64,000 nucleotides of DNA, from positions 1 through 64,000 of IMG/VR virus record IMGVR_UViG_3300034101_003866; one strand, 5' to 3'. Under the pieces are notes generated by a model. The model made no database searches, was not told where the DNA came from, and worked only from the letters and a program-made list of their open reading frames with translations. The position numbers and the translations under genes are program-made. Positions 5,177-37,465 of this stretch are shown piece by piece. How positions within the stretch are numbered: position 1 is the stretch's first letter; the number at the start of each line of letters is the position of its first letter. This stretch comes from a virus.

Positions 5177-5794
5177 ATGTCAGACAATAATCCAAAATTA
5201 ATATCAGACTGTGGTGATTGTAGCGGGCCAGCGAGTCCAACACCAACACGAACATCAACAGCAACTCCACGACCATCATCTACTGTAACAAAAACACCAC
5301 CAGCCACAAGAACTGGTACGCCAGTTAAAACTGCAACACCTACACTTAGCGTAACAAAATCACCAAATCCAACAACAACTCCACAACCAACAATAACTAA
5401 AACTCCTGCAAATACTAAAACTCCAGCCCCAACAAAAACTATTACTGCTACTCCAACTATTACTTTAACAGTAAGTCAGACCGTAAGCAAAACACCAGCA
5501 GCAAGTAAGAGTCCAACTCCAACAAAAACATCAACAAGAACACCAACAATTACTAAAACTGTAACACCAACAGTAACAAAGTCATTATCTGCAACTCCAA
5601 CAGTATCACCAACTCGCACGATAACTGCTACTCCAACAATATCTTTGACTAGAACAGCAACGCCAACTATTACTCCGTCAAAAACTCCATCTCCAAGTTT
5701 AACGCCAAGTATAACACCATCTATATCCGAACCTCCTCAACCAACTCCAAGTTCCAGTTATCCAGCAATTGGAACTATTCTTTATATACCATAA
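5177..5794 (+). CDS. Thr/Pro-rich mucin-like protein
   Basis: almost entirely TPT/xTxT repeats; no signal peptide. Confidence 0.8.
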   Translation: MSDNNPKLISDCGDCSGPASPTPTRTSTATPRPSSTVTKTPPATRTGTPVKTATPTLSVTKSPNPTTTPQPTITKTPANTKTPAPTKTITATPTITLTVSQTVSKTPAASKSPTPTKTSTRTPTITKTVTPTVTKSLSATPTVSPTRTITATPTISLTRTATPTITPSKTPSPSLTPSITPSISEPPQPTPSSSYPAIGTILYIP

Positions 5795-5800
5795 TAAATT

Positions 5801-8800
5801 ATGAGCAATTTTAGTCTTATAGTCGCAGGAAACCAACATATAACATTAGGATGGAATAATCCTGGAAATTTGCAGGCAAGAGAGTCTAGGTACAGAGTAC
5901 AGTATCGAGTGAAAACCAGCGTTACTGCAACATTTAGCGCAAATTGGGTAGACCATGGAACATTATATATAGCTAATACTCCACCATCTAATATTTTATA
6001 TACTGTTAATGGATTAATTAATGGATATTATTATCAATTTAGAGTAGTTGCAGTTAATAACACTAATAATGTTGAAAGAGAGATTTTTACAACAGTAAAT
6101 AACTCTATAGCTGATTGGACACCGTATGATTCTGCTGATGGCGGTGGTCAGGCTGTAAGAAATCTTAATCTATCGTATGTTGGTCAAAGACCTAAATTAA
6201 TATGGACAACTCCAAGCGTCTTAAGAGGAGCACAAGGAGAGTTTGGTAGTATTGGAGGACCAGATAACAGTTATGTTATACAGTATAAACTATCATCACC
6301 TAGTGTATCATGGCCAAAGGATACATCAGGATTGAATCGCCAAGGTTATAAAATAATCGATGCGGTGGTTGATATCGGAATAAACTCTTATTTATTTCCT
6401 GTTGGAGCATTAGTATCTGGTCAAACTTATGATATTAGAGTGAGTAGTCTTAGAACACAACAATATGTTGATAATCCACTGCTAGATAAAAATTTATCAT
6501 ATTTTACAACAAATGATCCTACTGTCGAGCCTCAGGAATTCGCAAATTCTGGTGCGGTAACAATACCGATCACTCGTATTCAGAGACCAATTTGGTCAAA
6601 AGTATTAACCGTAGTGGCAGTAGCACCAACCACTCCAACTCCAACACAAACTCAAAGTTTAACTCCTACAAAGACTAGAATCCCACAGGTTAGTCAAACA
6701 AGAACACCAACAAAAAGTTTAACGCCTACACGAACACCAACAAAACCGCCACTACAAATAACAGCTACTCCAACTTCAAGCAAACCATCTATTCAAACAA
6801 CAGCAACTCCTACTAATACAAAAGTTAATGTTGTGACTCAGACTCCAATAAACCAAACCAGTAATAAAATACTATTTTTACCAGCAAGTATTGGCAAAGA
6901 TAAAACTTGGAATTCAATTGGTCAAAATCTAGAAAAAATAACTTATACTAATGGTAATACTATTATTGGAGTATATAATGGAAAAATATACAAGTCTTTA
7001 GATAATGGATCCACATGGAATTCTTATACTATAAATAGTTCCAATTCTAATAAAGTAGAAAATACATTTACATTTACAGATTATCAAGCTTTATTGGGTA
7101 ATGTTTTAAGATTATCATCTGTTCCTCCTTTTTCATCACTAGACAGATATGCCGATGGAATGTCAGTGAGCGAATTCGATAATCAAGGAGTATTAATTCC
7201 ATATGTATATGATATGGATTTTTCAGATGATGGTCAAATAGTATATGCTATTGCTAGAACAATAATTTATCCAGAATCTACAAAAACACAAAGTGCTATT
7301 CTAAGATTCTCTCCATCCTTTCCTACTAGTATTCTTTATAAAAGCACAGATGGAGGAACAACATGGAAAATACTATCTTTTGAAAAAGATTCTCGTATCA
7401 TACATGGAGCTTGTGTTTGTTCTGGTGATGGACAAAAATTAGCTTTAATGAGTGAAAAATATCTTTATTATTATTCAGATTCATGGGTGGTGTCTCAATT
7501 AGCTGTGTCTGATGATGGAGGTAATACTATGTCTATAGTATTCTCTGATAATGGTCAACAAATTTTAAGAAATATTTCCATAGCTAAAAATAGTAATAAA
7601 GTTCTTTTTGCTGCACTTGTCAATCCTGGAACTGCAAATACTATAACTTCAATTATGCTATATGATTTTGCAAAAAAGACTATTAATATATTAAGTGATA
7701 AGTTTAATAACCGATTTGGAAATTCTCCATTAGGAGCTAGAATACATGTTGAGTCTGAAATTATTAAATTTGGTAAAGAATCTCTTGGTATTGGAGTTAT
7801 TGATATATCTAATGATGGAAATACTATAGCATATATTCAAGACAATGCTGCTGGAGACAGGTATTTAGCTATCAGTACAAACGGGGGAGATTCATTTAAT
7901 TATATCGGACGTTATTTTGTTGGGAATCCATATAGAATAGCTATCAATAATAAAAAAATTATATATTATACAACAGTAATGTTTGATATAGAAGGAATAC
8001 AATCAGAAAATGGTGGAGAAACATGGTCAACAATTGGTAAAATTCCATTAACACCATATGGTACGGCTGGGCTTACTTCATTTATTAAACAATTACGTTT
8101 TATGGATAGTGGAAATAAATTAGTTATAACAGCTTTCAATAACACCGACAATACCGCACAAAGACCTTCAAAAAATTCTACTAGACCTGTTTTTATTAGT
8201 CAGGAAAGTCCATCAACAAATAATCCTCAAATAACGCCAACAAGATCATCGGCATCAACAATAACCAGAACTCCAACTAAAACCAGACCATCAGTAACTC
8301 CAACACCTCTTGGAAAAGCCGTAAGAAATATAGAAATAGTTGGAGGAAACGAGTGCGCTTATGTCACATGGGACGCTCCTGAACAAACAGTTAATCTAAT
8401 TGGATATAGAGTATATTATTTACAGTCTGTAAATAGTTTATCTATTGCAGCCAATGACCCTAGATGGATACCGGCAGCATTTGGATATACATTTCCTATT
8501 AATATGAGGAACACACTAGTAGCAAATCTAGCTAATTCTACAAAACTTTTTATCAAGATTGAAAGCGTATATTCTGATAATATTCATAGTATTGTAATGA
8601 ATAATATTGTTGATAGTCCACAATATAATAAATATACAGATAATTCTCCAAACATAAGTTTGACTCAATCAACACCAAGTTTATCAAATTTATCTTGGAG
8701 CAATCCTATTGATCAAACTATTGGTAATTTAATTTGCACTAGAGAATATTCAGTAATATTTTATAAAGATAATATTTTAGAATATCAATCTGAATATAAT

Positions 8801-11800
8801 ACTAATATTTTTTCAGCAGAAATAAAGGATAAGTTTGGAAATTATTCTTTTGAAGTTGCTACAAAATATGTTGATACTTCTAATGGTAATCAAATAATTG
8901 TTAAATCACAAAGATTATTTTCATATTTCAAGCCAGTAACTCCTACTCCAACAGTAACAGTTTCTCCAACTAAAACAATAACCCCAACACCAACAAACCT
9001 TAAGAATAATTTAAGACCACAAAATCCACGAGTAACGGTTGGAAATAAATGTGCGTATGTAACATGGACTCCTCCAACAAATAATCAATTTACAGAAAGT
9101 ATGGGTTTCCCTCCTTCTGGCGTAAATTTTGAACTCGTAGGATATGAAGCATACTATGTTAACAGTGCTGAGTCATCAATAGTTAATCCTAAAACAAATA
9201 GTAAATGGATACCAGCATTAGATGGAATATTATTGCCAACAAACAAAACAAATATAACAATAAATGATTTAAAATTAGTTAATAATAGTTATTCATGTAA
9301 AATATCTAGCGTTTATCGTAGAGTCGGATATGTTCCATTATCATCTGAATTAATTAATAGTTTTAGTGATCCATATATTAAAAAATACGATTCTCCAGAA
9401 GTACAATTTAACACTACTACATCGCCACAAGATGTTAGTAATAGTCCAAATGCCTTAATGGCTAAAGAATCATATCCTGGAGTAATAGATTTATCTTGGA
9501 ATCAACCAAATGATAGATCTCTTGCGGGATTTAATTTTACTGATCAGTACTTTATAAATATTAGGGGACCAATTAATGATTCTGGAGATATTTCTTGGAT
9601 AGAATACGAAAAACATATTGGCAATAGACCATACTACTCATATAAAACTCCATATAGCGGATCTTATAGTTTTGAAATTATGGCAAATTATAATGTTCCA
9701 ACTGTCAAAGATTATAATAGCGATGGAGAAATCGACGTATTGGATCAGATAGAATTACTAAGTAATGAAACACTATTAAAATATGGAGTATTATCTAAAC
9801 CAATTGAGGTCGATGCTGCTAAATATAATAATGACATTGATTATATAGTTATAACTTGTGAATTTGATAGTGGGGATTTAAATTTAAGATCCCGTATGAT
9901 TTCTCCGAATTTAGGTCAAAACTCAGCAGATGATTATTTAGGAACAGGAAAAAAATTCACTTGGTATCCTGATCAAGCAGGCGCCCCAATATTAAAATGG
10001 GTAGGAGATAAGGGCGGCGCCCCGTCATATGAGTCTATAATAATTGATTTGAAAAAATTTAAAATTAATAATCCCAATGATCAAATATTAAAGTTAGATA
10101 TTAGAGGTTATTGGGACGGAGATATTAATTCTACTCCAATTAAAATATATGCTGATACATATCAAGAAGGAGAACAAGATTCTTATGATTTGAAAAAATT
10201 TATTAATTATATATCTTATAATAGAATAAATGCGCCAGATAAAATAGTACTAAGCTCAAATAAGGATTCTGGAGAGAGAATAACTGTAGTTGACTATAAC
10301 TTATTAACAAAACAATTAACATTTAATAATAATGATTTTAGTAGTCCATTTATAGGAGTTACGCCGACTCCAACAGTTAGCATAACACAAACTCAAACAC
10401 GAACAACAACTCCAACAGTAACACCAACAAAGAAATTAATATCCTTTGCAGGATGTTCTTTAGATATTGATGCTGGTATTTTAGTTAATTCGTTACGAGG
10501 AAATCAAATATGTTTATTAATTAATTTACCAGATATAGCATGTCTAACTAATTCTAGATTTTCTAATTTAGAAATTAGTGCAATCGAGGTTGGATCTTTA
10601 TCTTATAATTCAAGGGCATCAGACAGAACTTCAACAAGTCTAGGAACCGCCACTGTTCCATTTACTGATATATTATCTGGCGGAGGAAGTTGGAACTCAA
10701 CATCTTTTGATAAAGCAAGAATTTGGTCAGAAGGATCTTCTTATGGATATAAAAATCCAATATCTAATAATGGATCAACTGACAGCACTATCTTATTTAT
10801 GAAAAATGATTGGATTATAGATACAAATAAAATTTATTATATACAAATTAGATTGTCTGATGATAGTGGATTTTATAGTCAATATTTTTATAGTAATTAT
10901 ATTGGAAACAAACTTAATATACCTGGTAATTTTACATATAATACAAGATCTGATATAAGATCGTCTGGATTTGGACAAAAGGTTGTTGATTTAGGAGAAC
11001 CAACTCCAACTCCTACAAGAACACCAACAATTACGCAAACGATGACGCCAAGTATAACTCCAACAGTAACACCAACGGAGAAATTGCTAGAGTTAGATCT
11101 TAATATGTGTCAACCATCATATATTGATGCTTGTACAGTTATTGTAGAAGATTTCCGACCAATAAAACGTTATTCAGTTTTGTATATTGGTAATACTTGT
11201 GGTGATGTGCTACCTTCTGGACTAGAATATTTCTTAGAACGTTATTTTGCTTTTGGGAGTTGGGTTAATGGTGGCTGGGTTGGGGTATGGATTCCAACAG
11301 ACGGAAGAATAGAGTTTGTCCCAGGTGATGTTACAAGATTTAGAGTTACTATTATAGATAAAGTTAATAACAAAAAATCAAGCAGTTTAGTCTCGAATAC
11401 TGTTGGATACTCTATCCCAATATGTGGACCTCCGCCAAGTCAAACTCCAACAAATACGAAAAACGCGCCAACACCAACAATAACACCAACAATAACAAAA
11501 ACACCAACAACAACACAAACAGTAACACCAACCTTAACAAAAACGCTCACAAGAACACCTACTATAACACCAACAATAACTCCTACAATAACAACAACAA
11601 TCACACCAACACCATCGACAACAGAAAATACTATTTTATGTAAGAGTTTTAACCCAGGTAATGCAAATTTATTTATTGATGCTGCAATATTAAGCAATTC
11701 CACCAGAGCAAATCAACCTTGCTTATTAATTAATGTGTCTAATATTAATTGTATTAAATATTATAATGAAATAAAAATTGAACCATTTATGTTTGGTGGA

Positions 11801-14800
11801 GGTTATCAGATTGTTAATGGGATGGTTAATGAAGAAAATCTAGATTATGTACCAGATATGGATCCTATAATTATTCCAATAAAAGACATTATATCAGGAA
11901 CTGGTATTTTTAATGCAACTCCCCTTGATAAAGCAAGGATTTGGACGGAAGGTTCGTCTTATGGATATGTCAATCCATTAAGTCAAACAAGTAACTTATG
12001 GAATGGAGATAGTAATACTACTAATCATACTATATTATTTATGTCTAGTAAATGGACAGCAAATACAAATATGACATATACATTTAAAGTTAATTTAGGG
12101 TCTAATAATAGAAATGTATATAGTAATTTTATGGGTCCATTAGCTACAGGGAATTTTAAATATGTTAATCGTAGTGATATGAAAGTATCAAATTTTGGAC
12201 CAAGACCAATGATTGTGGAATTAACTCCAACACCAACAGTTACTCAAACAAAATCATTAACACCAACACCAACTAAATCTCCAACACCAACAAAATCACT
12301 AACACCTACTATAACTCCAACGCCAACAAAATATGTAGTTAGTAACTTTAATTTATTTAAGAATGACCCATATGCTCCTCAAAATTTTACAATTAATAAA
12401 TATTTAGGATCTTATTTAGTGGAATTTAATGGATCTCTTAATAAAATAATACCATATACTACTCAAATTCAATATCTTAAATTAAATTCATATAGTTTAG
12501 TTATTTATGCGAGATATGGTTACTCTCCATCTTGGAATACATTAAAAGAATTTCTTATTAAACCAGAAGATGTGGTGGCAGGCGACAAGTCCGTATTCCC
12601 AATCACTTTTACCGATTTAGACATAGAAGACGAACCATATAATTTTAATTATAATATTTCTGAATTTGATAAACGAAATAGATTAATATATAGAATAGGA
12701 TTAATTGCTAATTATAGCGACTCGACAGCTTTCCCAAGAGGCATAGGGAAAATAGCAGAGAATGATGAGGGATTAAGTGTCGATGGTATTGTTAATAATA
12801 CTGGCGCTGGATATGTACCAGAGTTTTATAGATCTGCTGGATTTTATGAATTAGATCCTGCAGATATATCATTGAACGATAGTCAATTAATTAATCCATT
12901 AGCTCCTAAACTGTTATCTATAGATAATCAGGGAAAATTTTCTTTTGAAATACCACAAACTTCATTATGTAGACCTACAGTAAAATCTGTTTTTGAAATT
13001 GTGTCATTCAACTCTCCTACAATCAAAGAGAATTTACAAGCATATCCTATGAGCTTATATTATACATTAACAGGGAATAATATTGGCACCTCAACATACT
13101 ACTATAAAGGTTCACGTTTACCAGCTGGAACTTATGCTGGAAGAATTAGGGTTTATTACTCTGATCGCTCAACCACTTTTGGAGCTAACGACTCAATTGT
13201 TTCAAATACTATATCTTTCACAGTTGATTCACAAACAGCTCCGATACCGACAAATACAAATGTAAATACTGGTTCTGATAGAACAATAAGAAATTTAAGT
13301 GTATTTGGAGGAAATAGTAGTATATATATAGGTTTTGATCAGCCAGTTAAAACTAAAGATGATGGATTATTAGGATATAAAGTTTATTATAGTAGTGATA
13401 ATGGAGTAAGTTGGGTCTTCTCTGATCCAGATCCTTATGACAGGGGAATCTATGTTTCATATGGTATCGAAAATATTCCATATGAATATAGACCAATCGC
13501 TGGAATACTATACTCATTTACCGTGCCATCAAATGGAGATTACTTAGTAAAAGTGGTATCAGAATATTCTGGTATTGATGGATCAAGTTATATTAATCCA
13601 AAAACATATGAAGTAATTTCTAATAAAGTATCAACAATTTCTACTTTAGAAACTCCGTTTTCTCCAACTATTAATTATAGTTTTGAAAAATATAAAGATA
13701 GTCCGGCTATTCGTTTTAATATAGTTGATAATGATAATTCTGCAACCTACGCCATAGTGTTAGACACATTAGCTCTTGGTGATCAAATAATTGATGCTAC
13801 TACTAATGAAATAAAATATGTTATTAATTCTTTTATTGGATTTAATAATGTATCTGATGCAACCAAACAATTAATATTTTCTGATCGTGAATTTATTAAA
13901 CCGGGAAGAACATATTATTTAAAGTTAACTAATAATAGTAATTATAAATTAAGTATTTTAAAGAGACAAAAAGTATGGACAACTGCTTCTACAACATATC
14001 CTTATAATGTTTATGTTGATAGTTTAAGCAAGGAATACGTCATAGGGAATAATTTAGCTACTGCAACTCCAACACCAACATCCACAAGATTACCACAACC
14101 ATCTCCAACTCCAACAAGAACTCCGGTTCCATTAACACCTGTTGAAAGAGCCTCATCGTCAGATTCTCCAACATTTGATATGGAATTAGAAACTAATCCA
14201 GTTACAGGAGATTATGATATAGTTATAAAAATTATTCCATTACAAAATAATCGTAATAACTTTAAATACGTTTCCAATTCAAGTTCTGTACAAAGTTTTG
14301 CTTCGGCCACGGCCAGTTTGCCAAAAACATCTCAGGATAATTGTGGAACATCAACTTATTCATATAGTGTTGGTGATAATATTGGTTATCCAAATATAGA
14401 TCGAGGGTTGGATCTTGCTCATATAATATTTTATAAAACATCTATTAATGGTAAAACAGCCATTGATTTAACGGATGCCAGTGGAACGAGGTCAGTATTT
14501 TATGGAGTAAGATATGGTGATGATAATTCATTGAGTCCAATATATAAAATAAAATTTACAAGATCTCAATTTTCCTTATTAACAAAAGAATTAGGAAATG
14601 GACAATATCAAATATATGCAGAAATTTCTCTTATATATAGAGGATCGCAAAGAAGATATATTGTTAGAAATACTAATTATCAGCAAACAAATACCACTGT
14701 TGGTTGTGCAAGTAGAGGGGGTGGGTTTTTTACAGATCCGACATTCACCATTTACACAGATGCGGCCTCGTCATTCCCATATAGAACAGTATATAGAACA

Positions 14801-27260: not shown

Positions 27261-27355
27261 AGTTAAGTATGTATTATAGTATATCCACCCGCTCTGCATA
27301 ATATATAATCATAAATCACCTCATGGTCAAGGCTAAAAAATCTTATCGTGAGCTG

Positions 27356-27383
27356 TTGACATCCATTCAACTCGACCTATAAT
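27356..27383 (+). promoter_or_regulatory. consensus sigma70 promoter
   Basis: TTGACA (27356-61), 16-nt spacer, TATAAT (27378-83). Confidence 0.85.
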
Positions 27384-27417
27384 ACAATGGTATGGGTCAA
27401 TTTACTTGAGAGATGAA

Positions 27418-27612: not shown

Positions 27613-27616
27613 TTAT

Positions 27617-27868: not shown

Positions 27869-28091
27869 GTCTTTATTTTTTCATGTATGGAATGGCTTTC
27901 CTAAAACCACCCAATCTGAAATTTTAGATAGATACTCTATATGTATGGACTGTTCTGATTTTAATAGAGAAAGATCAGAATGTAACATATGTGGTTGTGC
28001 TATTAGCAAGAAGAGTAAGTTTTTAAATAAACTTGCTTGGGCAGATCAAGAATGTCCGGCTGGTAAGTGGCCAAAAATAACTAGAGGATAA
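27837..28091 (+). CDS. small Cys-rich metal-binding protein (DUF6171-like)
   Basis: RYSICMDC...CNICGC...ECPAGKW. Confidence 0.7.
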   Translation: MLLIRLQTFLKSLFFHVWNGFPKTTQSEILDRYSICMDCSDFNRERSECNICGCAISKKSKFLNKLAWADQECPAGKWPKITRG

Positions 28092-28092
28092 A

Positions 28093-28668
28093 ATGGTAAT
28101 TAAAACAATAAATAAAAAAAATACTCCTACTAATATAGTTTATTCAAATCATGACCTATTTGGAATGGTCAGAGACAGAGTAACAACAGGAAACGAAGGG
28201 GCGACAGTTTTTGTTCCTCACGTTTGTAATAATATCGACTTGTTTGGGGCAGGATTTGCTGCTCAGGTTGCTATAAAATATCCTATAGTTAAAGAGAACT
28301 ATCATTTGCTTGGTAAAAGTTTCTTAAAAACTAATCTTGGATATTCTCAAATTGTTAAAGTATATGAGAATGATAAATATAGACATAAACTATGTTTTGT
28401 TAATATGATAGGACAAAATGGAATTAAAAGTAGTACAAATATTAGACCATTAAATTATTTGGCACTAGTAAAATCTATGAACTCTTTATCTCAATATATT
28501 CATACTAATACAGGTTTCTTAAATAAGAGCGAGAAAATTGAAATTCATTGTCCTAAGTTCGGAAGCGGACTTGCTGGAGGTAATTGGGATTTTATAACAG
28601 ATCTTATAGAAGATATCTGGGGTAAGTTTTTTGTGACAGTATATAACTATCCTCCAAATAAAAAATAA
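28093..28668 (+). CDS. macrodomain ADP-ribose hydrolase (Poa1p/TARG1/DarG-like)
   Basis: HVCNN...FGAGFAAQV, NMIGQ, PKFGSGLAGGNW. Confidence 0.85.
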   Translation: MVIKTINKKNTPTNIVYSNHDLFGMVRDRVTTGNEGATVFVPHVCNNIDLFGAGFAAQVAIKYPIVKENYHLLGKSFLKTNLGYSQIVKVYENDKYRHKLCFVNMIGQNGIKSSTNIRPLNYLALVKSMNSLSQYIHTNTGFLNKSEKIEIHCPKFGSGLAGGNWDFITDLIEDIWGKFFVTVYNYPPNKK

Positions 28669-28669
28669 T

Positions 28670-29272
28670 ATGACTAATACCTATAAACAAACATGGTGGG
28701 ACAATAATTTAAATAACGAATATATGTTTAATGTATTCTTAGGATGGGTCGGAGACTCGTCAGCAAAGTCAAAAGTATTTTTTAGAGAATTTTTAAAACA
28801 GCATAATTTTGAATCTATTATTGATATAGGCTGTGGACCGGCGACAGAATTCTTTGGTTTCAAGAATGATAATATAAATATTGAGTACACTGGTGTTGAC
28901 TCCAGTGCTATTTTAGTAGATAAGAATCTTAAACAAGGAATACCCATGATAAAAGCAGAGGCTCACAGTATTCCTGTTGAAGATAGTAGCTATGAAATAG
29001 CTTTTTCTAGACACGTTTTAGAACATCAACCAGCATTTGGTCCAGTACTTGATGAAATGATAAGAATAGGAAAAAAACTAGCTGCTCATACATGGTTTAA
29101 AAAACCGTCAAATGAAGAAGTCATATCTTATGATCCGGCACAACAGCTCTATCATAATACATATAATAAAGAAGATATAAATAAGTATATCTTATCTAAT
29201 CAAAAAGTTAAAAATTTTGAATGGATAGAGATAGATGAAACAGAATGTCTACTATTAGTATGGCTCAAATGA
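28670..29272 (+). CDS. class I SAM-dependent methyltransferase
   Basis: IIDIGCG, YTGVD, SRHVLEH. Confidence 0.88.
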   Translation: MTNTYKQTWWDNNLNNEYMFNVFLGWVGDSSAKSKVFFREFLKQHNFESIIDIGCGPATEFFGFKNDNINIEYTGVDSSAILVDKNLKQGIPMIKAEAHSIPVEDSSYEIAFSRHVLEHQPAFGPVLDEMIRIGKKLAAHTWFKKPSNEEVISYDPAQQLYHNTYNKEDINKYILSNQKVKNFEWIEIDETECLLLVWLK

Positions 29273-29916
29273 AAAAAGTCATTAGCTTTAGTTTATGGGG
29301 AGATAACAAGAAATATACGTTTGGAGCTATGCGTAATGCAGAATTATTGCATAAGATATATCCAGGATGGGAAGCTTATTTTTTTCTAGGATCATCTGTT
29401 CCCGATATTGTTTGGAAAAACCTATTACTACTTCCAAATATAACAGTATTTTACAAGGACTCACCTGGAGATTGGAGTTCCATGTTCTGGAGATTTGAAA
29501 CGTCCTATGATCCTATGGTTGATGTTTCTATATTCAGAGATACCGATTCTAGAATATCTATGAGAGAAAAATATGCTGTTGATGAGTGGTTATCATCAGA
29601 TAAGACTTTTCATATAATGAGAGATCATCCTCATCATGGATTCCCTATTTTGGGAGGAATGTGGGGCTATAAGAAAAATGATAAATATGATATGAGAAAG
29701 CTATTAACCTCTTTTGATAAAAATAATAGATACGGTACTGACTATGAATTTTTTGGTAAAGTGTTATATCCAATGATTGGAGAAGATAAAATAGTTCATG
29801 ATCCATTCTTTGACAAAAAACCCTTCCCAACAGAACGAATAGACAGAGAGTTCGTTGGAGATGTATTTGATGAAAAAGGTAATAGACATCCAGAATATTG
29901 GAAATATATATCATGA
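29269..29916 (+). CDS. glycosyltransferase-like protein
   Basis: ISFSLWG, YPGW, MFWRF, RDTDSR, FHIMRDHP, ILGGMWG; ATGA overlap with the upstream gene. Confidence 0.7.
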   Translation: MKKVISFSLWGDNKKYTFGAMRNAELLHKIYPGWEAYFFLGSSVPDIVWKNLLLLPNITVFYKDSPGDWSSMFWRFETSYDPMVDVSIFRDTDSRISMREKYAVDEWLSSDKTFHIMRDHPHHGFPILGGMWGYKKNDKYDMRKLLTSFDKNNRYGTDYEFFGKVLYPMIGEDKIVHDPFFDKKPFPTERIDREFVGDVFDEKGNRHPEYWKYIS

Positions 29917-30692
29917 TTAAAAATTATGGATTTAATACTTTCGTAACTAAAAATTGGCTCCCTTTAGCAGAAGTATTGGTTGATTCAATTGTATCTTTTA
30001 GTAAATACAAGATCACCATAAACTGCATAAATTTTGAACATGACTTTAATCATAATCAAGTTATTAGTAAAACCATAAACATAGATAATCTTAATTTTTA
30101 TTCTATATGTATGGCAAAATGGATGTCTCTATTAGATAATCCCTATGATATATGTGCAATACTAGATTCTGATATGGTTGCTACTAAAGAAATAGATAAT
30201 CTTTTCTATGAAAATGAAAATAAAATTAAAAATTCTAAATTCCCTTTATTAGCAAAACATCCCCATAATCCTTTTTCTAATCCTATGCATATTGAAAATC
30301 TAAAAAATTTATGTTCTTTCTTTTCTAAGAATAGTCCCAAAATGAACTGGGTATATGCATGTGGACTAGTATCTCAAGACCATAAACATTTTATATCAGA
30401 ATTAGTGGATAATATTTCTGCATTCCATAAACGAGGAATACAAACCTATATAGAAGATGAAGGCATTTTGAATGCATTATTGACTAAATATGAAGTTTCT
30501 GAAGACTTAGGATATAATCATATTCCAAATTCTACTTTGATAAATGCATATATAAATAATGACATGACTGATAAAGATTTATATGAATCTTACTTAAAGA
30601 ATAATTGTCCTGTCAAATTTTATCTGTTACACGGATGTAAAAATCCTACACTAGCAAAGTCACTACTACAACAAATCAAAAATAAAACATGA
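29913..30692 (+). CDS. GT-A fold glycosyltransferase (GT8-like)
   Basis: LDSD DxD motif, DEGILN, LHGCK. Confidence 0.65.
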   Translation: MIKNYGFNTFVTKNWLPLAEVLVDSIVSFSKYKITINCINFEHDFNHNQVISKTINIDNLNFYSICMAKWMSLLDNPYDICAILDSDMVATKEIDNLFYENENKIKNSKFPLLAKHPHNPFSNPMHIENLKNLCSFFSKNSPKMNWVYACGLVSQDHKHFISELVDNISAFHKRGIQTYIEDEGILNALLTKYEVSEDLGYNHIPNSTLINAYINNDMTDKDLYESYLKNNCPVKFYLLHGCKNPTLAKSLLQQIKNKT

Positions 30693-31348
30693 TTATTCAT
30701 CATCATCTGGGACTAGGCGATCATTTTGTCTGTAATGGTTTAGTAAATTTTATTGCTAAACATAATACCGATTGTATAGATTTGATATGCAAAAAACATA
30801 ATTTTCCAACAGTAGAATGTCTATACTCTGAAAATAATAAAATCAATGTGATTCCAATTGAGCATAATGGAAATGAACTAGAAGCAGTGGATGAATATGC
30901 ACTATCTCATAATAAAACAATTTTACGAATAGGATTTCAATATTGCGATTCAAATAATTGGGATAAATCTTTTTATAAACAAGTCGGAATAGATTTTATA
31001 GAAAGATATAGATTTTTTAAATTACCCAGATCTAGATCAAACCCGTTTCTGCAGTCTCCTAGTCACAAATATATTTTTATTCATAACCAGAGTAGCGATG
31101 GACTATTTGATCTTGCTTTACAAAGCGATCTTCCAAAAATTTATGTTAAAAAAGAAGATACCAACAATCTATTATCCTATATTCATTTAATACAAAATGC
31201 TGAAGAAATTCATTGTATTAATAGTTCATTATTCCATCTTATAGACAGTATACCAAATATAACAAACAATTTATATTATCATAATGTAAGAAAACATCCT
31301 TGCCATTTTCAAGTATCACCCAAATGGAACATAGTAGAATATGTCTGA
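30689..31348 (+). CDS. glycosyltransferase-like protein (GT-B)
   Basis: HHLGLGDHF, AEEIHCINSS. Confidence 0.6.
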   Translation: MIIHHHLGLGDHFVCNGLVNFIAKHNTDCIDLICKKHNFPTVECLYSENNKINVIPIEHNGNELEAVDEYALSHNKTILRIGFQYCDSNNWDKSFYKQVGIDFIERYRFFKLPRSRSNPFLQSPSHKYIFIHNQSSDGLFDLALQSDLPKIYVKKEDTNNLLSYIHLIQNAEEIHCINSSLFHLIDSIPNITNNLYYHNVRKHPCHFQVSPKWNIVEYV

Positions 31349-31724
31349 GAGAATACCAACTTCTAATGGAGAAATATTAGATAAATTTTCTATACTAGAA
31401 TTAAAATATAATAAAATTTTAGATCCAAATAAAATAAATAATATAAAAAATGAATTATCTTATTTAAAAGATATTTCTTATAATATTATTAAAAGTTATA
31501 ATATAGTTAATCTTTATAATGAATTAAAACAAGTTAATGAGCGATTATGGAATATAGAAGATAATATTAGAATCAAAGAAAATAAACAAGAATTTGATAA
31601 TGAATTTATAGAATTAGCTAGAAATGTATACAAAACTAATGATCAACGAGCAAATATAAAAAAACTTATAAATGAAATATCGGATTCAGAGATCGTAGAA
31701 GAAAAATCCTATGAAAAATATTGA
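31341..31724 (+). CDS. DUF6165-like coiled protein
   Basis: SNGEILDKFSILELK, LWNIED.IR, ARNVYKTNDQR, EEKSY. Confidence 0.7.
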   Translation: MSERIPTSNGEILDKFSILELKYNKILDPNKINNIKNELSYLKDISYNIIKSYNIVNLYNELKQVNERLWNIEDNIRIKENKQEFDNEFIELARNVYKTNDQRANIKKLINEISDSEIVEEKSYEKY

Positions 31725-32499
31725 TTATATAGAATTAAATAAATTATCTCATCTTCATGATGAACAAAATATCTTTTTTTGTAAGACAGATTATATCTTA
31801 GAAGATTTTGAAACAATACGAAACGTAAATCATCCGGTCACTTTAATTACGGGAAACTCTGATTATGCAATTACAGATGATATAGTTTCTTTGGCTCCTA
31901 AGAATATCATTGATTGGTATGCACAGAACGCAGTTTCCAAGTCTAAAATTCTACATCCTCTACCAATAGGATTAGAAAATAAACTACCATCAGTTAGACA
32001 AGGACATGGTATAGGATATTTTGACAGAGCATCAGAGAAGGAGAATCTGCTAAATGAAAATAATATATCTAATTTAGATAGTAAATTTATTTATGCTAAT
32101 TTTAATGTTAATACCAATTATAGTCATAGATCAATAGTTAAACAATATTGTATACAATCGTCTTTTATTAATTGGCAAGAACCTAATTTAACTCTGTCAG
32201 ATTTTTTTAATACAATACGAGATTATAAGATGGTAGTTTGTCCAGCAGGAAATGGTATAGATACACACAGATTATGGGAAGTTTTATACAGTAATAGGGT
32301 GCCAATTACCCTAGTTACTGGAGACTTTAAGATATATGAACTATATAAAAAATTACCAATAATTCTATTAAATCATATTGATCAATTGCTTGATAAAAAT
32401 TTTATAACACAAGAATATAATAGGTGTTTGTCTCAGAACTGGGATAAATCATTATTAGATGTAAACTCATGGATTAAAATTATTCAAAATAAAGACTAA
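31711..32499 (+). CDS. exostosin-like (GT47-related) protein
   Basis: PLPIGL, YANF, CPAGNGIDTHRLWEVLY. Confidence 0.65.
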   Translation: MKNIDYIELNKLSHLHDEQNIFFCKTDYILEDFETIRNVNHPVTLITGNSDYAITDDIVSLAPKNIIDWYAQNAVSKSKILHPLPIGLENKLPSVRQGHGIGYFDRASEKENLLNENNISNLDSKFIYANFNVNTNYSHRSIVKQYCIQSSFINWQEPNLTLSDFFNTIRDYKMVVCPAGNGIDTHRLWEVLYSNRVPITLVTGDFKIYELYKKLPIILLNHIDQLLDKNFITQEYNRCLSQNWDKSLLDVNSWIKIIQNKD

Positions 32500-32503
32500 C
32501 ATT

Positions 32504-33349
32504 ATGAGTAAAAATATATTAATATTAGGTAATGGGTTTATTGGTAAGAACCTATACGCATATTTTGTTTCTAAATATAATACAACTGTTACTAGTAAAA
32601 AAGATGTAGATATCACAAAAATCGAAACTGTTAGAAACTATCTGTCTGATAAAAATTTTGATTATGTTATTTACTCTATCGGAATAAAAGATATTGCTGA
32701 ATGTGAGAAATATCCAGATAAAGCATATGCTATTAACTCTAACGGTGTTGCTAATGTTATCAAATCTCTAAATAAAGATACCAAATTTATTTATATATCT
32801 ACAGACTATGTATTTGATGGTAACGCAGGAGGATATTCAGAAAACTCTGTATCTCTACCGTCAACCACTTACGGACAATCCAAACTAATAGGAGAACAAC
32901 ACTCACTCCAGCACAATAACTCTATTGTTGTTAGAACATCCGGAGTATATGGAGAAAATTGTCTTTGGCTTAAAAACTTATTAATTTCTTTGTCAGAGAA
33001 GAAAGAAACTGTATGTTTTTCTGATGTATATAATACTCCAACATATGCTATCAATTTAGCAGAAATGATTGACGATATTATTAATATTAATTTTGTAGGA
33101 GTTATCCATTTAAGCGGGAATACAAGAAATAATAGATATGAACTATACTCATCTGTGGCTACTATATTTGAGAGGGATCTTTCTCTTTTGTCTAGCGGAC
33201 TATCAGACGGAAAATTTCCTAAAGATATTTCATTAAATAATAATTTGTATAAACAAATAACTAAAAAAATACCAGATTCTGTAACTAGCGGACTAACAAG
33301 ACTAAAAAATGAACATCAATATATTGATCCCGTCAACTTCATCAATTAA
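32504..33349 (+). CDS. rmlD: dTDP-4-dehydrorhamnose reductase
   Basis: GNGFIG, YISTDYVFDG, YGQSKLIGE, NTPTY. Confidence 0.88.
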   Translation: MSKNILILGNGFIGKNLYAYFVSKYNTTVTSKKDVDITKIETVRNYLSDKNFDYVIYSIGIKDIAECEKYPDKAYAINSNGVANVIKSLNKDTKFIYISTDYVFDGNAGGYSENSVSLPSTTYGQSKLIGEQHSLQHNNSIVVRTSGVYGENCLWLKNLLISLSEKKETVCFSDVYNTPTYAINLAEMIDDIININFVGVIHLSGNTRNNRYELYSSVATIFERDLSLLSSGLSDGKFPKDISLNNNLYKQITKKIPDSVTSGLTRLKNEHQYIDPVNFIN

Positions 33350-34202
33350 TACTATTAATAATGGAGCAAATGTTCAAGGGGATGAACTAGTTGCTCGATC
33401 CTGGGCAAAATATCTACAAAAAGATACAAGAGTTTCTAATGTAGATATTAATGGATTTGGCATATATGATATTTCTATATCCTTTAGTCCATTAGTAAAC
33501 CAACAAATGACAGGATATAAAGTACTATATCTACAAAATGTTTTTCCAAAACCCGCTTGGCCCGGCACTATTGAAGTTTATCATCAAATAAAAAATAACT
33601 ATGATGGTTTTATATTTCCGTCTGAAGGACTAATGAACAACTGTGGCGAAGGGCTTGTGTGTCAATTTGCTGTTGATCCTGATTTATTTTTTCCTAAATC
33701 TATAAATGATAATTTATCTCATAACTTGTGTTTTGTAGGAAATAATATTAGAGATCAACAAACATCAGAAAAATATTTATTATGTGCTAAAGATAAAGGA
33801 TTGGCTATATATGGTAATCCAGCAGGATGGAACTCTCCACTATGTAAAGGAAAGATAAGCATAGATGATGAAGCCACATTATACTCTTCTTCAAAAATAT
33901 GTTTAAATGCTCATCTTACTGAACACCTAGATTATGGTTCATATAATTTCCGTATATTTAATATTCTAGCATGTAAAGGTTTTATTATTTCTGACAGATC
34001 TAAATTCTTAGAAACAGAATTTAATGACTGTATGGAATTTACAGACGGAAATGATGATCTTCTTTCAAAGATTGATTATTACTTAAATAATCCAGAAGAG
34101 ACAAATAAATATAGAGAATATGGCTATAATTATATTTTATCTAAACATACTTTCAAACACAGAATGTCAGATCTATTAAACTGGCTAGGAACAAAATTAT
34201 GA
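33309..34202 (+). CDS. glycosyltransferase (CgeB / Glyco_trans_1_2-like)
   Basis: FAVDP, FVGN, SKICLN, NFRIFNILAC, HTFKHR. Confidence 0.8.
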   Translation: MNINILIPSTSSINTINNGANVQGDELVARSWAKYLQKDTRVSNVDINGFGIYDISISFSPLVNQQMTGYKVLYLQNVFPKPAWPGTIEVYHQIKNNYDGFIFPSEGLMNNCGEGLVCQFAVDPDLFFPKSINDNLSHNLCFVGNNIRDQQTSEKYLLCAKDKGLAIYGNPAGWNSPLCKGKISIDDEATLYSSSKICLNAHLTEHLDYGSYNFRIFNILACKGFIISDRSKFLETEFNDCMEFTDGNDDLLSKIDYYLNNPEETNKYREYGYNYILSKHTFKHRMSDLLNWLGTKL

Positions 34203-35578
34203 AAATATTATTTGCAAATATACCAAATGTAAAATATGTTAATGGACAGATCCATACTGGGCCAAATGCAGGATCACGATGGCCTTGGACTAATCCCGGA
34301 GGACATTTTCATGGCTATGCACCTTTCCCATTTTGGCTAGGATATGCTGCAAAATATGTACAACATCATGGTTTTGAAACGTATTTTTATGATGGCGTTG
34401 CACTAAAACATGCTGATTTAGAAATTACTAAAAAAGTTATTTATGATTTAAAACCAGATATAATTTTTTATGATATATCTACTCCAACTTTTAAACTAAA
34501 TAACGATATAGCATTATGGTTTAAACAAAATATTGGATGTCGAAATGTATATTGTGGACCGCACATGAAAACCTATGCCAATGAATGTATAGAGTTAGAT
34601 CATGTCGATCATTGTATTGTTGGAGAATACGACATACCAGCATTAGACATTTGTCAAAAACTAGATAATGCTAAAGATATCTACAGATTTGAACATTTGT
34701 CAAATATCGATACTCTGCCCAATGGAGACAATTTTTTACCATATAGACCATTAGAATATATTCAAAATTATTATGAACCAACTATGAACACTCCAATGAT
34801 TCAATTAACTGTGAGTGCTTCTCGTGGATGTCCATTTAAATGTACATATTGTCAATGGCCAAATGTTATAAATAATGGTAAATACAGAGCAAGATCAGCA
34901 GAAATGGTTGTTGATGAAATCCAACAAATGAAAAATATTTTAGGAGATAATCTAAGAAGTATACTTTTTGATGATGATACATGGAATCTTGGACACAACA
35001 GAATATCCAAAATTTGTGATGGATTAAAGAATTTTAATATGCCGTGGACAATGATGGGTAGAATAGATACGAGTAAACCAGAGCTATATGATAAAATGGT
35101 GGATTCTGGTTGTGTTGGTATGAGATTTGGTATTGAAACATTTAATCAGGAACTATCTGATAATGTTAAAAAACATATGAATACTAAAACTGCTTATGAT
35201 AATCTAAAATATTTAGTTACTAGATTTTCAAATATGGAATTTCATTTTACTACCATGAAAAATTTTCCAGGAGAAAAAGCAGGATCATGGGCAAAAGATC
35301 AAGAAATACTCCAAGATCTTCAACGAATTGGTAGACAAAATAATAATACTGTTCATTGGCAAATTAGTGATTGCATACCCTTCCCTGGAACAGAATTATG
35401 GGAGGAACTAGTAGAACTCGGACACGGAGATACTCTTAAAGACTTTAGTTTATATGATGGTAGTCCAGAGCATAATGGAGCATTAGAAAAAACTGTAGGC
35501 TGGCTAGGAGAAAATTACAAACCTAAATATTCAGAATACTCTAAGGATGGAAGTCCAACAAACTTTCCAGAACATTAA
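34199..35578 (+). CDS. cobalamin-binding radical SAM protein (class B methyltransferase-like)
   Basis: N-terminal B12-binding-type region (GPH, IVGEYD); SRGCPFKCTYC; FDDD; FGIE; PFPGT. Confidence 0.88.
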   Translation: MKILFANIPNVKYVNGQIHTGPNAGSRWPWTNPGGHFHGYAPFPFWLGYAAKYVQHHGFETYFYDGVALKHADLEITKKVIYDLKPDIIFYDISTPTFKLNNDIALWFKQNIGCRNVYCGPHMKTYANECIELDHVDHCIVGEYDIPALDICQKLDNAKDIYRFEHLSNIDTLPNGDNFLPYRPLEYIQNYYEPTMNTPMIQLTVSASRGCPFKCTYCQWPNVINNGKYRARSAEMVVDEIQQMKNILGDNLRSILFDDDTWNLGHNRISKICDGLKNFNMPWTMMGRIDTSKPELYDKMVDSGCVGMRFGIETFNQELSDNVKKHMNTKTAYDNLKYLVTRFSNMEFHFTTMKNFPGEKAGSWAKDQEILQDLQRIGRQNNNTVHWQISDCIPFPGTELWEELVELGHGDTLKDFSLYDGSPEHNGALEKTVGWLGENYKPKYSEYSKDGSPTNFPEH

Positions 35579-35580
35579 TC

Positions 35581-36210
35581 ATGAAAGGTCAAATAAATCT
35601 TGATACAAAATTAGGTCAGCATATATATAACATTATTAAAAATTATGATATTAAAACTATATTAGACATAGGAACATGGAATGGATACGGCAGTACAATG
35701 TGTTGCTTACAGTCTATCATAGATAACAATAAAAATTGTAACTTCATTTCAATAGAAGCTAACCATAAACAATTCTTGGAAGCACAAGTAAATCTGAAAA
35801 ACTATATCAAATATGTTCAATTATTTTATGGACGTATAACACATTTAAAGGATTTAGTTTCTTTAAATGATTATGATGAATCTTTTTTTACCTTATTCAG
35901 TAAAAATCTTCAAGAACAATGGTATCAAGTAGACGTAAACCAGCACACCACTGCTCCATATATATATGATACAATTATTTCTATAATGAATAATCATATA
36001 AATTTACTAATATCAGATGGTGGAGAATATTGTTCACATGGAGAATTTAATAAATTAAAAGATATTGTTGATTTTATTATTTTAGATGACACTAATACTA
36101 TTAAAAACTATAACACAGCAGAAATAATTAGAAAATCTCCAGATCAATACGAAATATTAGCAGATGATACTAATGAGAGAAATGGTTTTATGGTGTGTAG
36201 AAAAAAATGA
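35581..36210 (+). CDS. SAM-dependent methyltransferase-like protein
   Basis: LDIGTWNGYGST, DGGEY, ILDDTN. Confidence 0.7.
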   Translation: MKGQINLDTKLGQHIYNIIKNYDIKTILDIGTWNGYGSTMCCLQSIIDNNKNCNFISIEANHKQFLEAQVNLKNYIKYVQLFYGRITHLKDLVSLNDYDESFFTLFSKNLQEQWYQVDVNQHTTAPYIYDTIISIMNNHINLLISDGGEYCSHGEFNKLKDIVDFIILDDTNTIKNYNTAEIIRKSPDQYEILADDTNERNGFMVCRKK

Positions 36211-36731
36211 ATCATACATTTATTTATAATAAATTAATTTCTGATATAATTTTAATTAAAACTCAAATTTATGAAGATAATCGAGGTACTCTTTATGAAA
36301 CTTATAATAAAGAGTTATTTACTAAAAATGGTATACCAGAGATAGTACAAGAAAAATGTTCACGTTCCGAACATAGAGTACTAAGAGGATTACACTATCA
36401 AAAAGATCCTTACGGACAAGGCAAAATAATTAGATGTAATAGAGGTAAAATTTTTGATGTTGCCGTTGATATTAGAGAAAATTCAACAACATATAAACAA
36501 TGGGTTTCATATGAATTATCAGAATCTAATAAAGATATGGTATATATACCACCAGGATTTGCTCATGGAATATTAGTGTTAAGCGAGGATGGTGCAGACT
36601 TTAGCTACTTTACAACAGAAAAACACTATCCAGAATATGAAACGGTAATAAAATATGATGATCCAACAATAAATATAGATTGGCCAATTAAAGATGTAAT
36701 TCTATCAAATAAGGACAAAGGAAACAAATGA
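36207..36731 (+). CDS. rmlC: dTDP-4-dehydrorhamnose 3,5-epimerase
   Basis: EDNRG, VLRGLHYQ, DVAVDIR, IPPGFAHG, DDPTINIDWP. Confidence 0.93.
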   Translation: MNHTFIYNKLISDIILIKTQIYEDNRGTLYETYNKELFTKNGIPEIVQEKCSRSEHRVLRGLHYQKDPYGQGKIIRCNRGKIFDVAVDIRENSTTYKQWVSYELSESNKDMVYIPPGFAHGILVLSEDGADFSYFTTEKHYPEYETVIKYDDPTINIDWPIKDVILSNKDKGNK

Positions 36732-37465
36732 AAAATTATAGATGTTCTTCTTTTTGTTCTTTATATAAAGGAGAAAAATTTGTTCAAGGATATATAGAAG
36801 ACATGTTGAAACAGTCTATTTTTAATGATATTGAATTTATCTTTTTAGACTGTGCTTCTCCAGAAAATGAAAAAGACTTTATTTTACCATTAACTGAAGA
36901 ATATTCAAATATAAAGTATCATAGACTAGATAGCGATCCTGGTTTATATGCAGCATGGAATATGGCTATTAAAATGTGCTCATCAAATTTAATAGGAAAC
37001 TGGAATATTGACGATAGAAAAAATATAAATAGTTTTGAAATACTGGTTAAGTGTTTTGATAGAGATCCAGATTTAGACGTAGCATACGGACTAACATACG
37101 TATCAACAATCGCTAATGAAAAATATGAAAATAATGATTACTCTAATTTTTATCCGTGCTTACCTCATTCGTTAAAAAACTTATTAATGAATAACAGTCC
37201 TCATTGTATGCCGTTATGGAAAAAGAATTTACATGATAGATTTGGATACTTTGACGAATCGTATAAGACGGCTTCTGATGGAGATATGTGGTTGCGTTCC
37301 TGCGTCGGAGGTGCTAAGATACAGTTGGTCAATCACCCTGTTGGCTTGTACTACCACAACCCAAAGGGTAGATCGACTGATCAAAAAACGTTGTTGGAGA
37401 TGGTTGCTGAAGTTCAGCAAATGAGAAAAAAATACATACACTATTTGGAGAATGACAATGGATAG
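36728..37465 (+). CDS. GT2-family glycosyltransferase
   Basis: LYAAWN, NIDDR, GYFDE, DGDMWLR. Confidence 0.85.
   Translation: MKNYRCSSFCSLYKGEKFVQGYIEDMLKQSIFNDIEFIFLDCASPENEKDFILPLTEEYSNIKYHRLDSDPGLYAAWNMAIKMCSSNLIGNWNIDDRKNINSFEILVKCFDRDPDLDVAYGLTYVSTIANEKYENNDYSNFYPCLPHSLKNLLMNNSPHCMPLWKKNLHDRFGYFDESYKTASDGDMWLRSCVGGAKIQLVNHPVGLYYHNPKGRSTDQKTLLEMVAEVQQMRKKYIHYLENDNG

Follow-up and report, generated by a model that had tools for sequence, protein, structure and literature searches.

A GT60 glycosyltransferase and its two-headed partner in an uncultured lake jumbo phage: a probable route to mucin-type O-glycosylation of Thr/Pro-tract proteins

What is the role of the glycosyltransferase genes in the viral DNA analysed here, a 64 kb window that covers positions 1-64,000 of IMGVR_UViG_3300034101_003866 (one strand)? 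The window is a piece of an uncultured lake jumbo phage, and it encodes a soluble glycosyltransferase (GT) of family PF11397/GT60, a two-headed GT beside it, and three proteins with long tracts of threonine and proline (TP tracts). To judge from sequence comparison, this GT pair probably sugar-coats the TP-tract proteins, because in related complete genomes the pair is found only where there are long TP tracts. With moderate confidence, we favour a phage-encoded, cytoplasmic mucin-type O-glycosylation of (Thr-X)n tracts in the phage's own modular proteins, with the GT60 enzyme as initiator, the two-headed enzyme as extender and a swappable set of decorators. The genes on which this argument turns are the following.

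5177-5794, plus strand: 205-residue protein, nearly all Thr/Pro tract (6 tracts), 29% Thr and 18% Pro, with an N-terminal Cys motif DCGDC; candidate acceptor
5801-15298, plus strand: 3165-residue 'beads on a string' protein with domain matches and 9 TP tracts; candidate acceptor
15311-18661, plus strand: 1116-residue protein with 4 TP tracts in residues 1-380 and, after them, a domain of FGE-sulfatase/C-type-lectin fold; candidate for both acceptor and binding protein
24344-25636, minus strand: soluble PF11397/GT60 glycosyltransferase of 430 residues (Pfam); proposed initiating polypeptide N-acetylhexosamine (HexNAc) transferase
25608-27299, minus strand: two-headed glycosyltransferase of 563 residues (HtrL_YibB Pfam match and predicted fold); proposed extender

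The first-pass annotation, made from the letters alone, had called 24344-25636 a GT60-like enzyme, and this assignment is borne out: the protein matches PF11397 with 231.4 bits (E 2.7e-68), far above the cut-off of 21 bits, and its predicted fold is closest to mucin-type initiators. Searches of PDB sequences with the protein itself and with a 50-sequence profile returned no relative, and only fold comparison linked it to solved enzymes. An AlphaFold2 (AF2) model built from 50 diverse homologs reached a mean predicted local distance difference test score (pLDDT) of 94.1. When this model was compared with the PDB by Foldseek, the best 50 matches were all polypeptide N-acetylgalactosamine (GalNAc) transferases, with E-values of about 1e-9. 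VIA-align superimposed it on GalNAc-T1 with Z 21.3 over 280 residues (root-mean-square deviation 3.6) and on Toxoplasma TgGalNAc-T3 with Z 19.9, other GT-A folds scoring Z 16.7 or less. The lists of fold matches held no solved GT60 chain, and the comparison is therefore one with the sister family GT27. Among the 50 homologs a D106-S107-H108 motif shows conservation of 90% or more and H243 never varies; as read from the alignment, a DxH followed by a downstream His is the pattern expected of this enzyme class. Residues 340-430 form a beta-rich C-terminal domain. No hydrophobic or transmembrane (TM) segment was found in the 430 residues, so that the enzyme has no N-terminal signal anchor and resembles the cytosolic Gnt1 branch of the family.

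The family itself is large. More than 7,400 of 8,000 candidates scored in a metagenome protein set are homologs of the window enzyme, there are 4,673 representative clusters at 50% identity, and the PF11397 assignment is precomputed on all homologs listed. Some metagenomic members (P0122, P0123, P0125, P0130 and P0135) are 1,600-2,460 residues long and carry three or four PF11397 domains in tandem; among such long multi-domain proteins none has a fused TP tract, save for one short tract in one 612-residue protein. Bacterial relatives occur in at least 561 species genomes. In several Burkholderiales the relative lies 1-5 kb from the VgrG spike gene of a type VI secretion system (T6SS), whose product has a long C-terminal (PT)n tract, as in Ralstonia sp. 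25C (chromosome; L329, 10001-15134), Achromobacter (L345) and Paraburkholderia ferrariae (L352). Either this tail-like spike is glycosylated too, or the glycosyltransferase is a cargo of the T6SS.

The partner had been noticed as an HtrL-type GT. The HtrL_YibB Pfam match upholds this, and the predicted fold (pLDDT 87) resolves the protein further into two GT-A domains. The N-terminal domain (residues 13-282) contains the HtrL_YibB match and a WIDGG motif and resembles retaining GT6/GT8 enzymes (BoGT6a, Z 12.6; LgtC, 11.0; PBCV-1 A64R, 11.1). The C-terminal domain (residues 305-563) has a FEDDMF motif and is GT2/GT13-like (B4GALNT1, Z 15.2; POMGNT1, 14.4). Over the whole chain, the fold matches include two-headed LARGE1, heparosan synthase, chondroitin synthase and Mimivirus R699. 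When all window proteins were searched by tblastn against 82 GT60 loci, the two-headed protein was the sole constant neighbour, present in 77 of them. The pair comes in two gene orders, with the partner either directly upstream, as in the window, or 2-8 kb downstream, bracketing variable genes, as in phage XacN1. A predicted complex of the two proteins scored 0.00 in a run without controls, a value that speaks neither for nor against an interaction.

We define a TP tract as a 12-residue window with at least eight Thr plus Pro. By this measure the three consecutive plus-strand open reading frames (ORFs) at 5177-18661 hold 6, 9 and 4 tracts, 19 in all and covering 417 residues, and none of the other window ORFs of at least 60 residues holds any. 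The earlier description of three proteins without signal peptides and with about a dozen tracts is thus confirmed, as no hydrophobic N-terminus, signal peptide or TM segment was detected in the three. Shuffling the residues gives 0.18 expected tracts for the 3165-residue protein and 0.08 for the 1116-residue protein; for the 205-residue protein, whose composition is Thr/Pro-rich throughout, it gives 3.7 against the 6 observed. Within the tracts, Thr occupies 75% of alternate positions, and the second phase is filled by Pro (41%), then Ile, Lys, Thr, Arg and Val, with scarcely any Asp, Glu or Ser. The underlying DNA repeats are degenerate (59-87% matches) and the codons vary, which argues that the pattern is kept at the protein level. 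In the 3165-residue protein, the tracts link a series of domains, among them fn3 (at residues 1-88 and at 841-923), a segment of BNR/sortilin type and others without assignment. Such fn3, BNR and lectin-fold domains, together with the absence of export signals, would fit virion-attached binding fibres. The rest of this phage was judged through a close relative, G001, the closest complete one, in which a long operon of genes for large proteins encodes both a paralogous TP protein of 1226 residues, with 11 tracts, and a protein that matches minor-tail-protein families.

Two further features of tract proteins were observed beside GT60 genes. Many of them begin with a short peptide containing CC, CxxC or a single Cys, with the tract directly after it (for example MTIININCCPV, MSKLRTSCCEDC and MSDNNPKLISDCGDC; in the window at 5177-5240 and 15311-15370; also in L014, L016, L017, L021, L034, L036, L045 and L047). 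As a signal peptide is absent, the Cys peptide is no lipobox, and it may serve in attachment or recognition. The second feature is a family of 13 members that combine an N-terminal domain of 138 residues (MEFFIKKNATLP...) with a TP tract behind it (L064-L069, L074 and L080, at about 16.2-17 kb). In the loci checked (e.g. L064, L074, L080), its gene directly follows that of the two-headed GT, in the partner-downstream gene order, making it a candidate for a dedicated substrate encoded within the cassette.

How closely do the enzymes and the tracts keep company? Around 80 GT60 loci from IMG/VR there are 19.1 TP tracts per 100 kb, as against 1.4 around 80 PhoH loci of related phages, and for 45 of these GT60 loci a tract-bearing ORF lies no more than 10 kb away. 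After masking of the tracts, the 101 tract-bearing ORFs near GT60 fall into 41 unrelated families, so that the association does not come down to one inherited neighbour gene. Whole records were scored by TPTxTPT sites, with the reversed pattern as control. All nine complete records ascertained through GT60 contain such sites (4-60 per record, often tens of kb from the GT60 gene; control 0-1); of the complete records ascertained through PhoH, three that are GT60-positive have 56-88 sites and seven that are GT60-negative have none. The perfect correlation between GT60 and tracts that these samples gave (12/12 versus 0/7) was broken by a sample ascertained through ribonucleotide reductase (RNR), namely by G080, G038 and G081, and for this reason we narrowed the claim to the pair of GT60 and two-headed GT. 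A whole-record search finds the two-headed partner in 12 of 12 complete records that are both GT60-positive and tract-positive and in 0 of 14 others. Among the 20 complete records ascertained through the markers PhoH or RNR, six have the pair and tracts, none the pair only, two tracts only and twelve neither (Fisher one-sided, about 7e-4). In a PhoH tree the states of pair and tracts interleave, with at least three transitions. Starting from the tracts instead, of 38 records selected by a TPTxTPTxTPT tract alone, 14 had PF11397, even though many of the 38 are 14-44% fragments, and 5 of the 8 complete ones were without it. In sum, each complete genome sampled that has the pair has tracts as well, and tracts do not require the pair.

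In INPHARED, a GT60 homolog occurs only in the Xanthomonas phages XacN1 and Xoo-sp13 and the Stenotrophomonas phages CM1 and RAS14, at 47-49% identity (48-49% for XacN1 and Xoo-sp13). In XacN1 and Xoo-sp13, GT60, carbamoyltransferase and two-headed partner cluster near baseplate genes, and each genome has 51 TPTxTPT sites and none of the reversed control. The XacN1 proteins with such sites are ORF350, ORF384, ORF325, which neighbours the baseplate wedge, and large proteins encoded next to the tail-sheath completion gene. ORF325 was considered as a homolog of the 3165-residue window protein; the two are not homologous, and the shared 'giant neighbour' is therefore not inherited synteny. XacN1 virions contain at least two periodic-acid-Schiff-positive glycoproteins, which the authors suggest are made by phage enzymes, ORF334, the GT60 homolog, being one of two glycosyltransferases (PMC5852040). 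In the searchable papers, we found nothing on GT60 in phages beyond a CAZy tally.

By what steps might such a system work? We infer the acceptor residue, the sugar and the virion location of the TP proteins as follows. The GT60 enzyme would add a first HexNAc, probably alpha-linked N-acetylglucosamine (GlcNAc), to Thr of (Thr-X)n tracts with X being Pro, Ile, Lys, Arg or Val, acting on the phage's own large modular proteins while these are still in the host cytoplasm. The two-headed GT-A/GT-A enzyme would then add the next two sugars or a repeating disaccharide. Lineage-specific accessories, in this phage a carbamoyltransferase, two or three methyltransferases, the 6-deoxyhexose enzymes RmlC/RmlD, a B12 radical S-adenosylmethionine (SAM) enzyme and several small GTs, would decorate the chain. 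The glycosylated stalks would space the fn3, BNR and lectin-fold domains, in proteins that are most likely virion fibres or whiskers. By analogy with LARGE1, heparosan synthase and chondroitin synthase, the two-headed enzyme might even be a polymerase that lays a repeating disaccharide on the Thr primed by GT60, a stronger version that we hold to be rather unlikely.

The remaining enzymes of the region set the pair in its context. The two-headed GT and GT60 genes form a minus-strand operon with an FkbM methyltransferase, a carbamoyltransferase and a GT-like 323-residue protein. Between the TP genes and this operon stand two protease genes, whose products may process the giant proteins, and a plus-strand block of enzyme genes runs in the other direction. 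The features are as follows.

18981-19727, plus strand: trypsin-like protease with a signal-peptide-like N-terminus; within 10 kb of GT60 in 36 of 82 loci
19708-20634, plus strand: cytoplasmic S8 subtilase; within 10 kb of GT60 in 38 of 82 loci
21095-22066, minus strand: 323-residue protein without a Pfam match; ESM Atlas places it with Glyco_trans_1_2/GT90-like clusters, as a lead only
22063-23640, minus strand: O-carbamoyltransferase (Carbam_trans_N and Carbam_trans_C; Pfam); an accessory, found in 6 of 82 loci, XacN1 and Xoo-sp13 among them
23637-24341, minus strand: FkbM-type SAM methyltransferase (Pfam); an accessory, in 9 of 82 loci
27356-27383, plus strand: perfect sigma-70 promoter consensus, TTGACA-16-TATAAT, heading the plus-strand enzyme block
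28670-29272, plus strand: class I SAM methyltransferase (Methyltransf_11; Pfam)
29245-29916, plus strand: GT8/nucleotide-diphospho-sugar-transferase-like protein (ESM Atlas lead)
29898-30692, plus strand: weak Mannosyl_trans3 match, below the Pfam cut-off
30689-31348, plus strand: small gene of no family
31341-31724, plus strand: DUF6165
31711-32499, plus strand: weak RXYLT1_C match, below the Pfam cut-off
32504-33349, plus strand: RmlD-type reductase of deoxythymidine diphosphate (dTDP)-4-dehydrorhamnose (Pfam)
33309-34202, plus strand: Glyco_trans_1_2 glycosyltransferase (Pfam)
34199-35578, plus strand: B12-binding radical SAM enzyme; best families HpnJ, PhpK and AprD4, each below its own cut-off
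35581-36210, plus strand: 209-residue protein, possibly a methyltransferase (ILDIGTWNGYG motif by eye; no family match)
36207-36731, plus strand: RmlC, dTDP-4-dehydrorhamnose 3,5-epimerase (Pfam)
36728-37465, plus strand: GT2 (Pfam)
39460-40518, plus strand: GT4 (Pfam)
36728-40518, plus strand: block of GT2, nucleoside deoxyribosyltransferase-like protein, inosine monophosphate dehydrogenase/guanosine monophosphate (GMP) reductase and GT4

Much of the enzyme inventory of the first-pass annotation holds at this level. The carbamoyltransferase, the B12 radical SAM enzyme and RmlC/RmlD are all matched by Pfam. Of its three SAM methyltransferases, two have a family match (FkbM and Methyltransf_11) and the third, at 35581-36210, stands on a motif seen by eye only; of its roughly seven other GT-like genes, five hold up firmly and a further four or five (29245-29916, 21095-22066, 29898-30692 and 31711-32499) are no more than leads. 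An NCBIfam search with seven unassigned ORFs of the cluster gave no match. As it had also supposed, no flippase or polymerase is visible: in the ORFs at 21095-40518 there is no TM segment, and no membrane protein, initiating transferase, flippase/transporter or polymerase. The rhamnose set RmlA-D is incomplete, with RmlC and RmlD only. A scan of window ORFs turned up neither RmlA nor RmlB; the phage would need dTDP-4-keto-6-deoxyglucose from the host or genes outside the window. Not all of these genes belong together. Including a 193-residue protein, the block at 36728-41110 is kept at 43-84% identity in phages without the GT60 pair, and its part at 36728-40518 is also found in G081 and G077, both without TP tracts and without the pair, because of which it probably belongs to another function. 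The 'glycan-decoration kit' proposed earlier thus survives in part: soluble sugar enzymes are present, but the invariant part is only the GT60 pair, and the GT2-to-GT4 block occurs in tract-free phages as well. GT60 and the two-headed GT make up the core; most of the other enzymes, carbamoyltransferase and methyltransferases included, are accessories that can be swapped. Probably accessory, too, are the remaining genes of the minus-strand operon and plus-strand genes like the one at 29245-29916: of the complete genomes, 6 of the 12 that have the pair contain it, and 0 of the 14 that lack the pair.

As to the phage itself, the window has about 31% guanine plus cytosine (GC) and densely packed, frequently overlapping ORFs, which also encode PhoH, a class II RNR, RuvB, an HNH nuclease and an Mtd_N-type protein. 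The same genes occur, with identities of 62-99%, on viral contigs in IMG/VR; these reach 244 kb in length, and some of them have terminal repeats. At 54057-58505 there is a second block of glycan type (a GT2, a 336-residue protein and one of 887 residues in which a stretch weakly resembles GT9), an island of 25% GC in surroundings of about 31-35%.

Several observations weigh against a mucin-type system directed at TP tracts. In the window, the TP genes adjoin RuvB and volactin, and not recognised structural genes or a tail module; 35 of the 80 GT60 loci are tract-free over the 10 kb around the gene. The 20 marker-ascertained complete genomes are a small sample and mutually related. Complete phages with TP tracts and without PF11397 are G034, G038, G039, G045, G060 and G080, from which it follows that the tracts do not need the enzyme and could be plain linkers. 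Conversely, no TPTxTPT tracts were found in G081 (complete, 159 kb) or G077 (L446, 67% complete), so that, with G081 tract-free, membership in PF11397 alone does not predict the acceptor. In XacN1, the Schiff-stained bands were left without protein identities (PMC5852040).

These exceptions have features of their own. The tracts of the tract-picked, PF11397-negative records are often acidic, of TPTE or TPTD type. G038 (IMGVR_UViG_3300042197_003184) has 170 Glu-rich (TPTETPT) TPTxTPT sites at 51-77 kb and neither PF11397 nor a two-headed GT; in G080, a complete record, 30 TPTxTPT sites lie at 69-91 kb, and PF11397 and the two-headed GT were both not found. The tracts of these two may be served by another transferase or by none. 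A divergent PF11397 subfamily is found in G081 (G081:C1:48892-49791; L444/L445) and in G077. The G081 protein has 36% identity to the window enzyme and stands among ordinary genes, with no two-headed partner within 19 kb; the acceptor of this subfamily must be a different one.

Could the enzymes serve another end altogether? They might work at the cytoplasmic face on a non-protein glycan (host lipopolysaccharide (LPS) core, capsule or envelope polymer), either making or altering it, and so exclude superinfection or change the host surface, with the TP tracts as flexible linkers. This would agree with the HtrL_YibB match of the partner's N-terminal domain, a family named from the LPS-core region of E. 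coli, with the GT9 (heptosyltransferase)-like stretch and GT2 at 54057-57498, with RmlC/RmlD, which are typical of surface polysaccharide loci, and with the tracts of phages that have no GT60. We consider it unlikely, however, as the cluster offers no initiating phosphoglycosyl transferase, flippase, polymerase or membrane protein, the closest folds modify proteins and not lipids or glycans, and the virions of XacN1 contain glycoproteins (PMC5852040); nor does it predict a pair that occurs only with tracts (6/6 versus 2/14 complete related genomes). Modification of phage DNA or nucleotides into hypermodified bases, as a guard against restriction, seems to us the most improbable account. Phage DNA glucosylation is classical, and a deoxyribosyltransferase-like gene, GMP reductase and deoxycytidine monophosphate deaminase are nearby; yet the fold is that of polypeptide transferases and not of T4-type DNA glucosyltransferases, the nucleotide-enzyme block is also present in phages without the pair, and co-variation with TP tracts would be left without a reason.

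If the acceptor is a protein, it need not be the tract, or not its threonine. The pair may glycosylate other sites in phage structural proteins, or host proteins in the course of take-over. The GT60 member Gnt1 does act at a single site of one protein, Skp1 (PMC8724618), the bacterial homologs adjoin VgrG genes of the T6SS, the usual place of effector genes, and the divergent phage PF11397 occurs without any tracts. Against this, it is the tracts themselves that co-vary, in 41 unrelated carrier families and from genome to genome, and the bacterial VgrG neighbours carry (PT)n tracts too, so we rate this option as quite unlikely. Hydroxyproline (Hyp) within the tracts, as in the Skp1 pathway, is a highly improbable acceptor, even though Pro is the commonest partner residue there and Gnt1, the only cytosolic GT60 enzyme characterised, is Hyp-specific (PMC8724618). 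We set it aside because no prolyl hydroxylase is linked to GT60: a scan of window ORFs found no 2-oxoglutarate-Fe(II) oxygenase, and PF13640 occurs in 2 of the 12 complete GT60-positive genomes and in 1 of the 7 negative ones. The regularly spaced residue, moreover, is Thr (75% of alternate positions) and not Pro. Returning to glycosylation of tract threonines by the pair, the check suggested by the first-pass annotation, co-occurrence of GT60 with TP-repeat proteins, came out in favour of the pair, found only with tracts (6/6 versus 2/14), but not of GT60 as such, given tracts without GT60 and divergent GT60 without tracts. Likewise, its 'cytoplasmically glycosylated, methylated/carbamoylated mucin-like coat' is partly supported, by family and fold of the GT60 protein, soluble enzymes, the co-variation and local clustering of pair and tracts, and the Schiff-positive virion glycoproteins of XacN1, but not as a single system made up of the whole kit.

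What would follow if the link between pair and tracts is true? Glycosylation of phage structural proteins is regarded as rare and is documented mainly for some mycobacteriophages; work on these by Freeman et al. (2023) is cited in PMC10568470 and PMC12582341. The family of the starter enzyme here is very large, and its paired form tracks a simple signature, (Thr-X)n tracts, in complete genomes. If the link is true, mucin-type O-glycosylation would be no eukaryotic speciality, but common in phages and readable from sequence. Fibres of lake and soil phages would be sugar-coated, which would affect host recognition, adhesion of particles, resistance to proteases and immunity, and the mass-spectrometric identification of virion proteins; the enzymes would also provide soluble, cytoplasmic tools with which bacteria could be made to produce mucin-like glycoproteins. 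Should the two-headed enzyme be a polymerase after all, the fibres of thousands of aquatic and soil phages would bear brushes of methylated or carbamoylated, proteoglycan-like glycan. Such a glycocalyx, made by the virus and assembled wholly in the bacterial cytoplasm, would shape adsorption, protease resistance or particle stickiness. The idea is directly testable, as four cultured phages carry a GT60 homolog.

How does the proposed system compare with known ones? Among cultured phages, the likeness is greatest in XacN1 (ORF334 with ORF333 and with ORF330, its two-headed GT) and Xoo-sp13, which share with the window system the carbamoyltransferase, the two-headed partner and the TPTxTPT sites. 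In the XacN1 paper, ORF334 is not linked to GT60 or to mucin-type initiation and TP tracts are not mentioned (PMC5852040). The closest solved structures are the animal and Toxoplasma GalNAc-transferases of GT27, which have a DxH-type motif in common with the phage enzyme; they belong to another Pfam family, share 12-15% sequence identity with it and, unlike it, possess a ricin-type lectin domain and a Golgi membrane anchor.

Through the shared family PF11397, the phage enzyme can be likened to the GT60 enzymes of protists, the pp-alpha-GlcNAcT of T. cruzi and the modB-type enzyme of Dictyostelium. The proposed phage acceptors are likewise Thr-rich, mucin-like tracts with Pro. Protist Golgi GT60 enzymes have an N-terminal signal anchor. 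The protist mucin enzymes work in the Golgi, whereas the phage enzyme has no TM segment and is predicted to act in the bacterial cytoplasm; the phage enzyme also has an extra beta-rich C-terminal domain of 90 residues. Protist GT60 enzymes start O-glycans with alpha-GlcNAc on Thr (PMC3769586; PMC8724618), and those of the secretory pathway have been suggested to derive from cytosolic ones by gaining N-terminal signal anchors (PMC8724618). The Skp1 pathway of protists starts with a cytosolic GT60 enzyme, Gnt1, followed by the bifunctional diglycosyltransferase PgtA and further soluble GTs (PMC8724618). In layout it resembles the phage pair, a soluble GT60 enzyme and one protein with two GT domains, the proposed extender. 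The domains differ, PgtA being GT2 plus GT74 and the phage partner HtrL/GT6-GT8-like plus GT2/GT13-like, and so does the acceptor: Skp1 is modified at a single Hyp, which requires a prolyl hydroxylase (PhyA), whereas the phage GT60 has no linked hydroxylase.

Two bacterial and viral precedents complete the picture. In mycobacteriophages, as studied by Freeman et al. in 2023, particles reportedly carry glycans that phage-encoded transferases add in the cytoplasm; the GT families are said to be others, the acceptors to be C-termini of capsid and tail-tube proteins and not long TP tracts, and the hosts to be actinobacteria. The serine-rich-repeat adhesins of Gram-positive bacteria receive O-GlcNAc in the cytoplasm from GtfA/GtfB on the long Ser/Thr repeats of a fibre-like adhesin, after which variable soluble GTs follow. 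That system is unlike the phage case in that a GT4 (GT-B) pair initiates, export is by an accessory Sec pathway, and it is bacterial and not viral. The known kinds that stand behind the phage system are the protist GT60 pathways and phage virion glycosylation.

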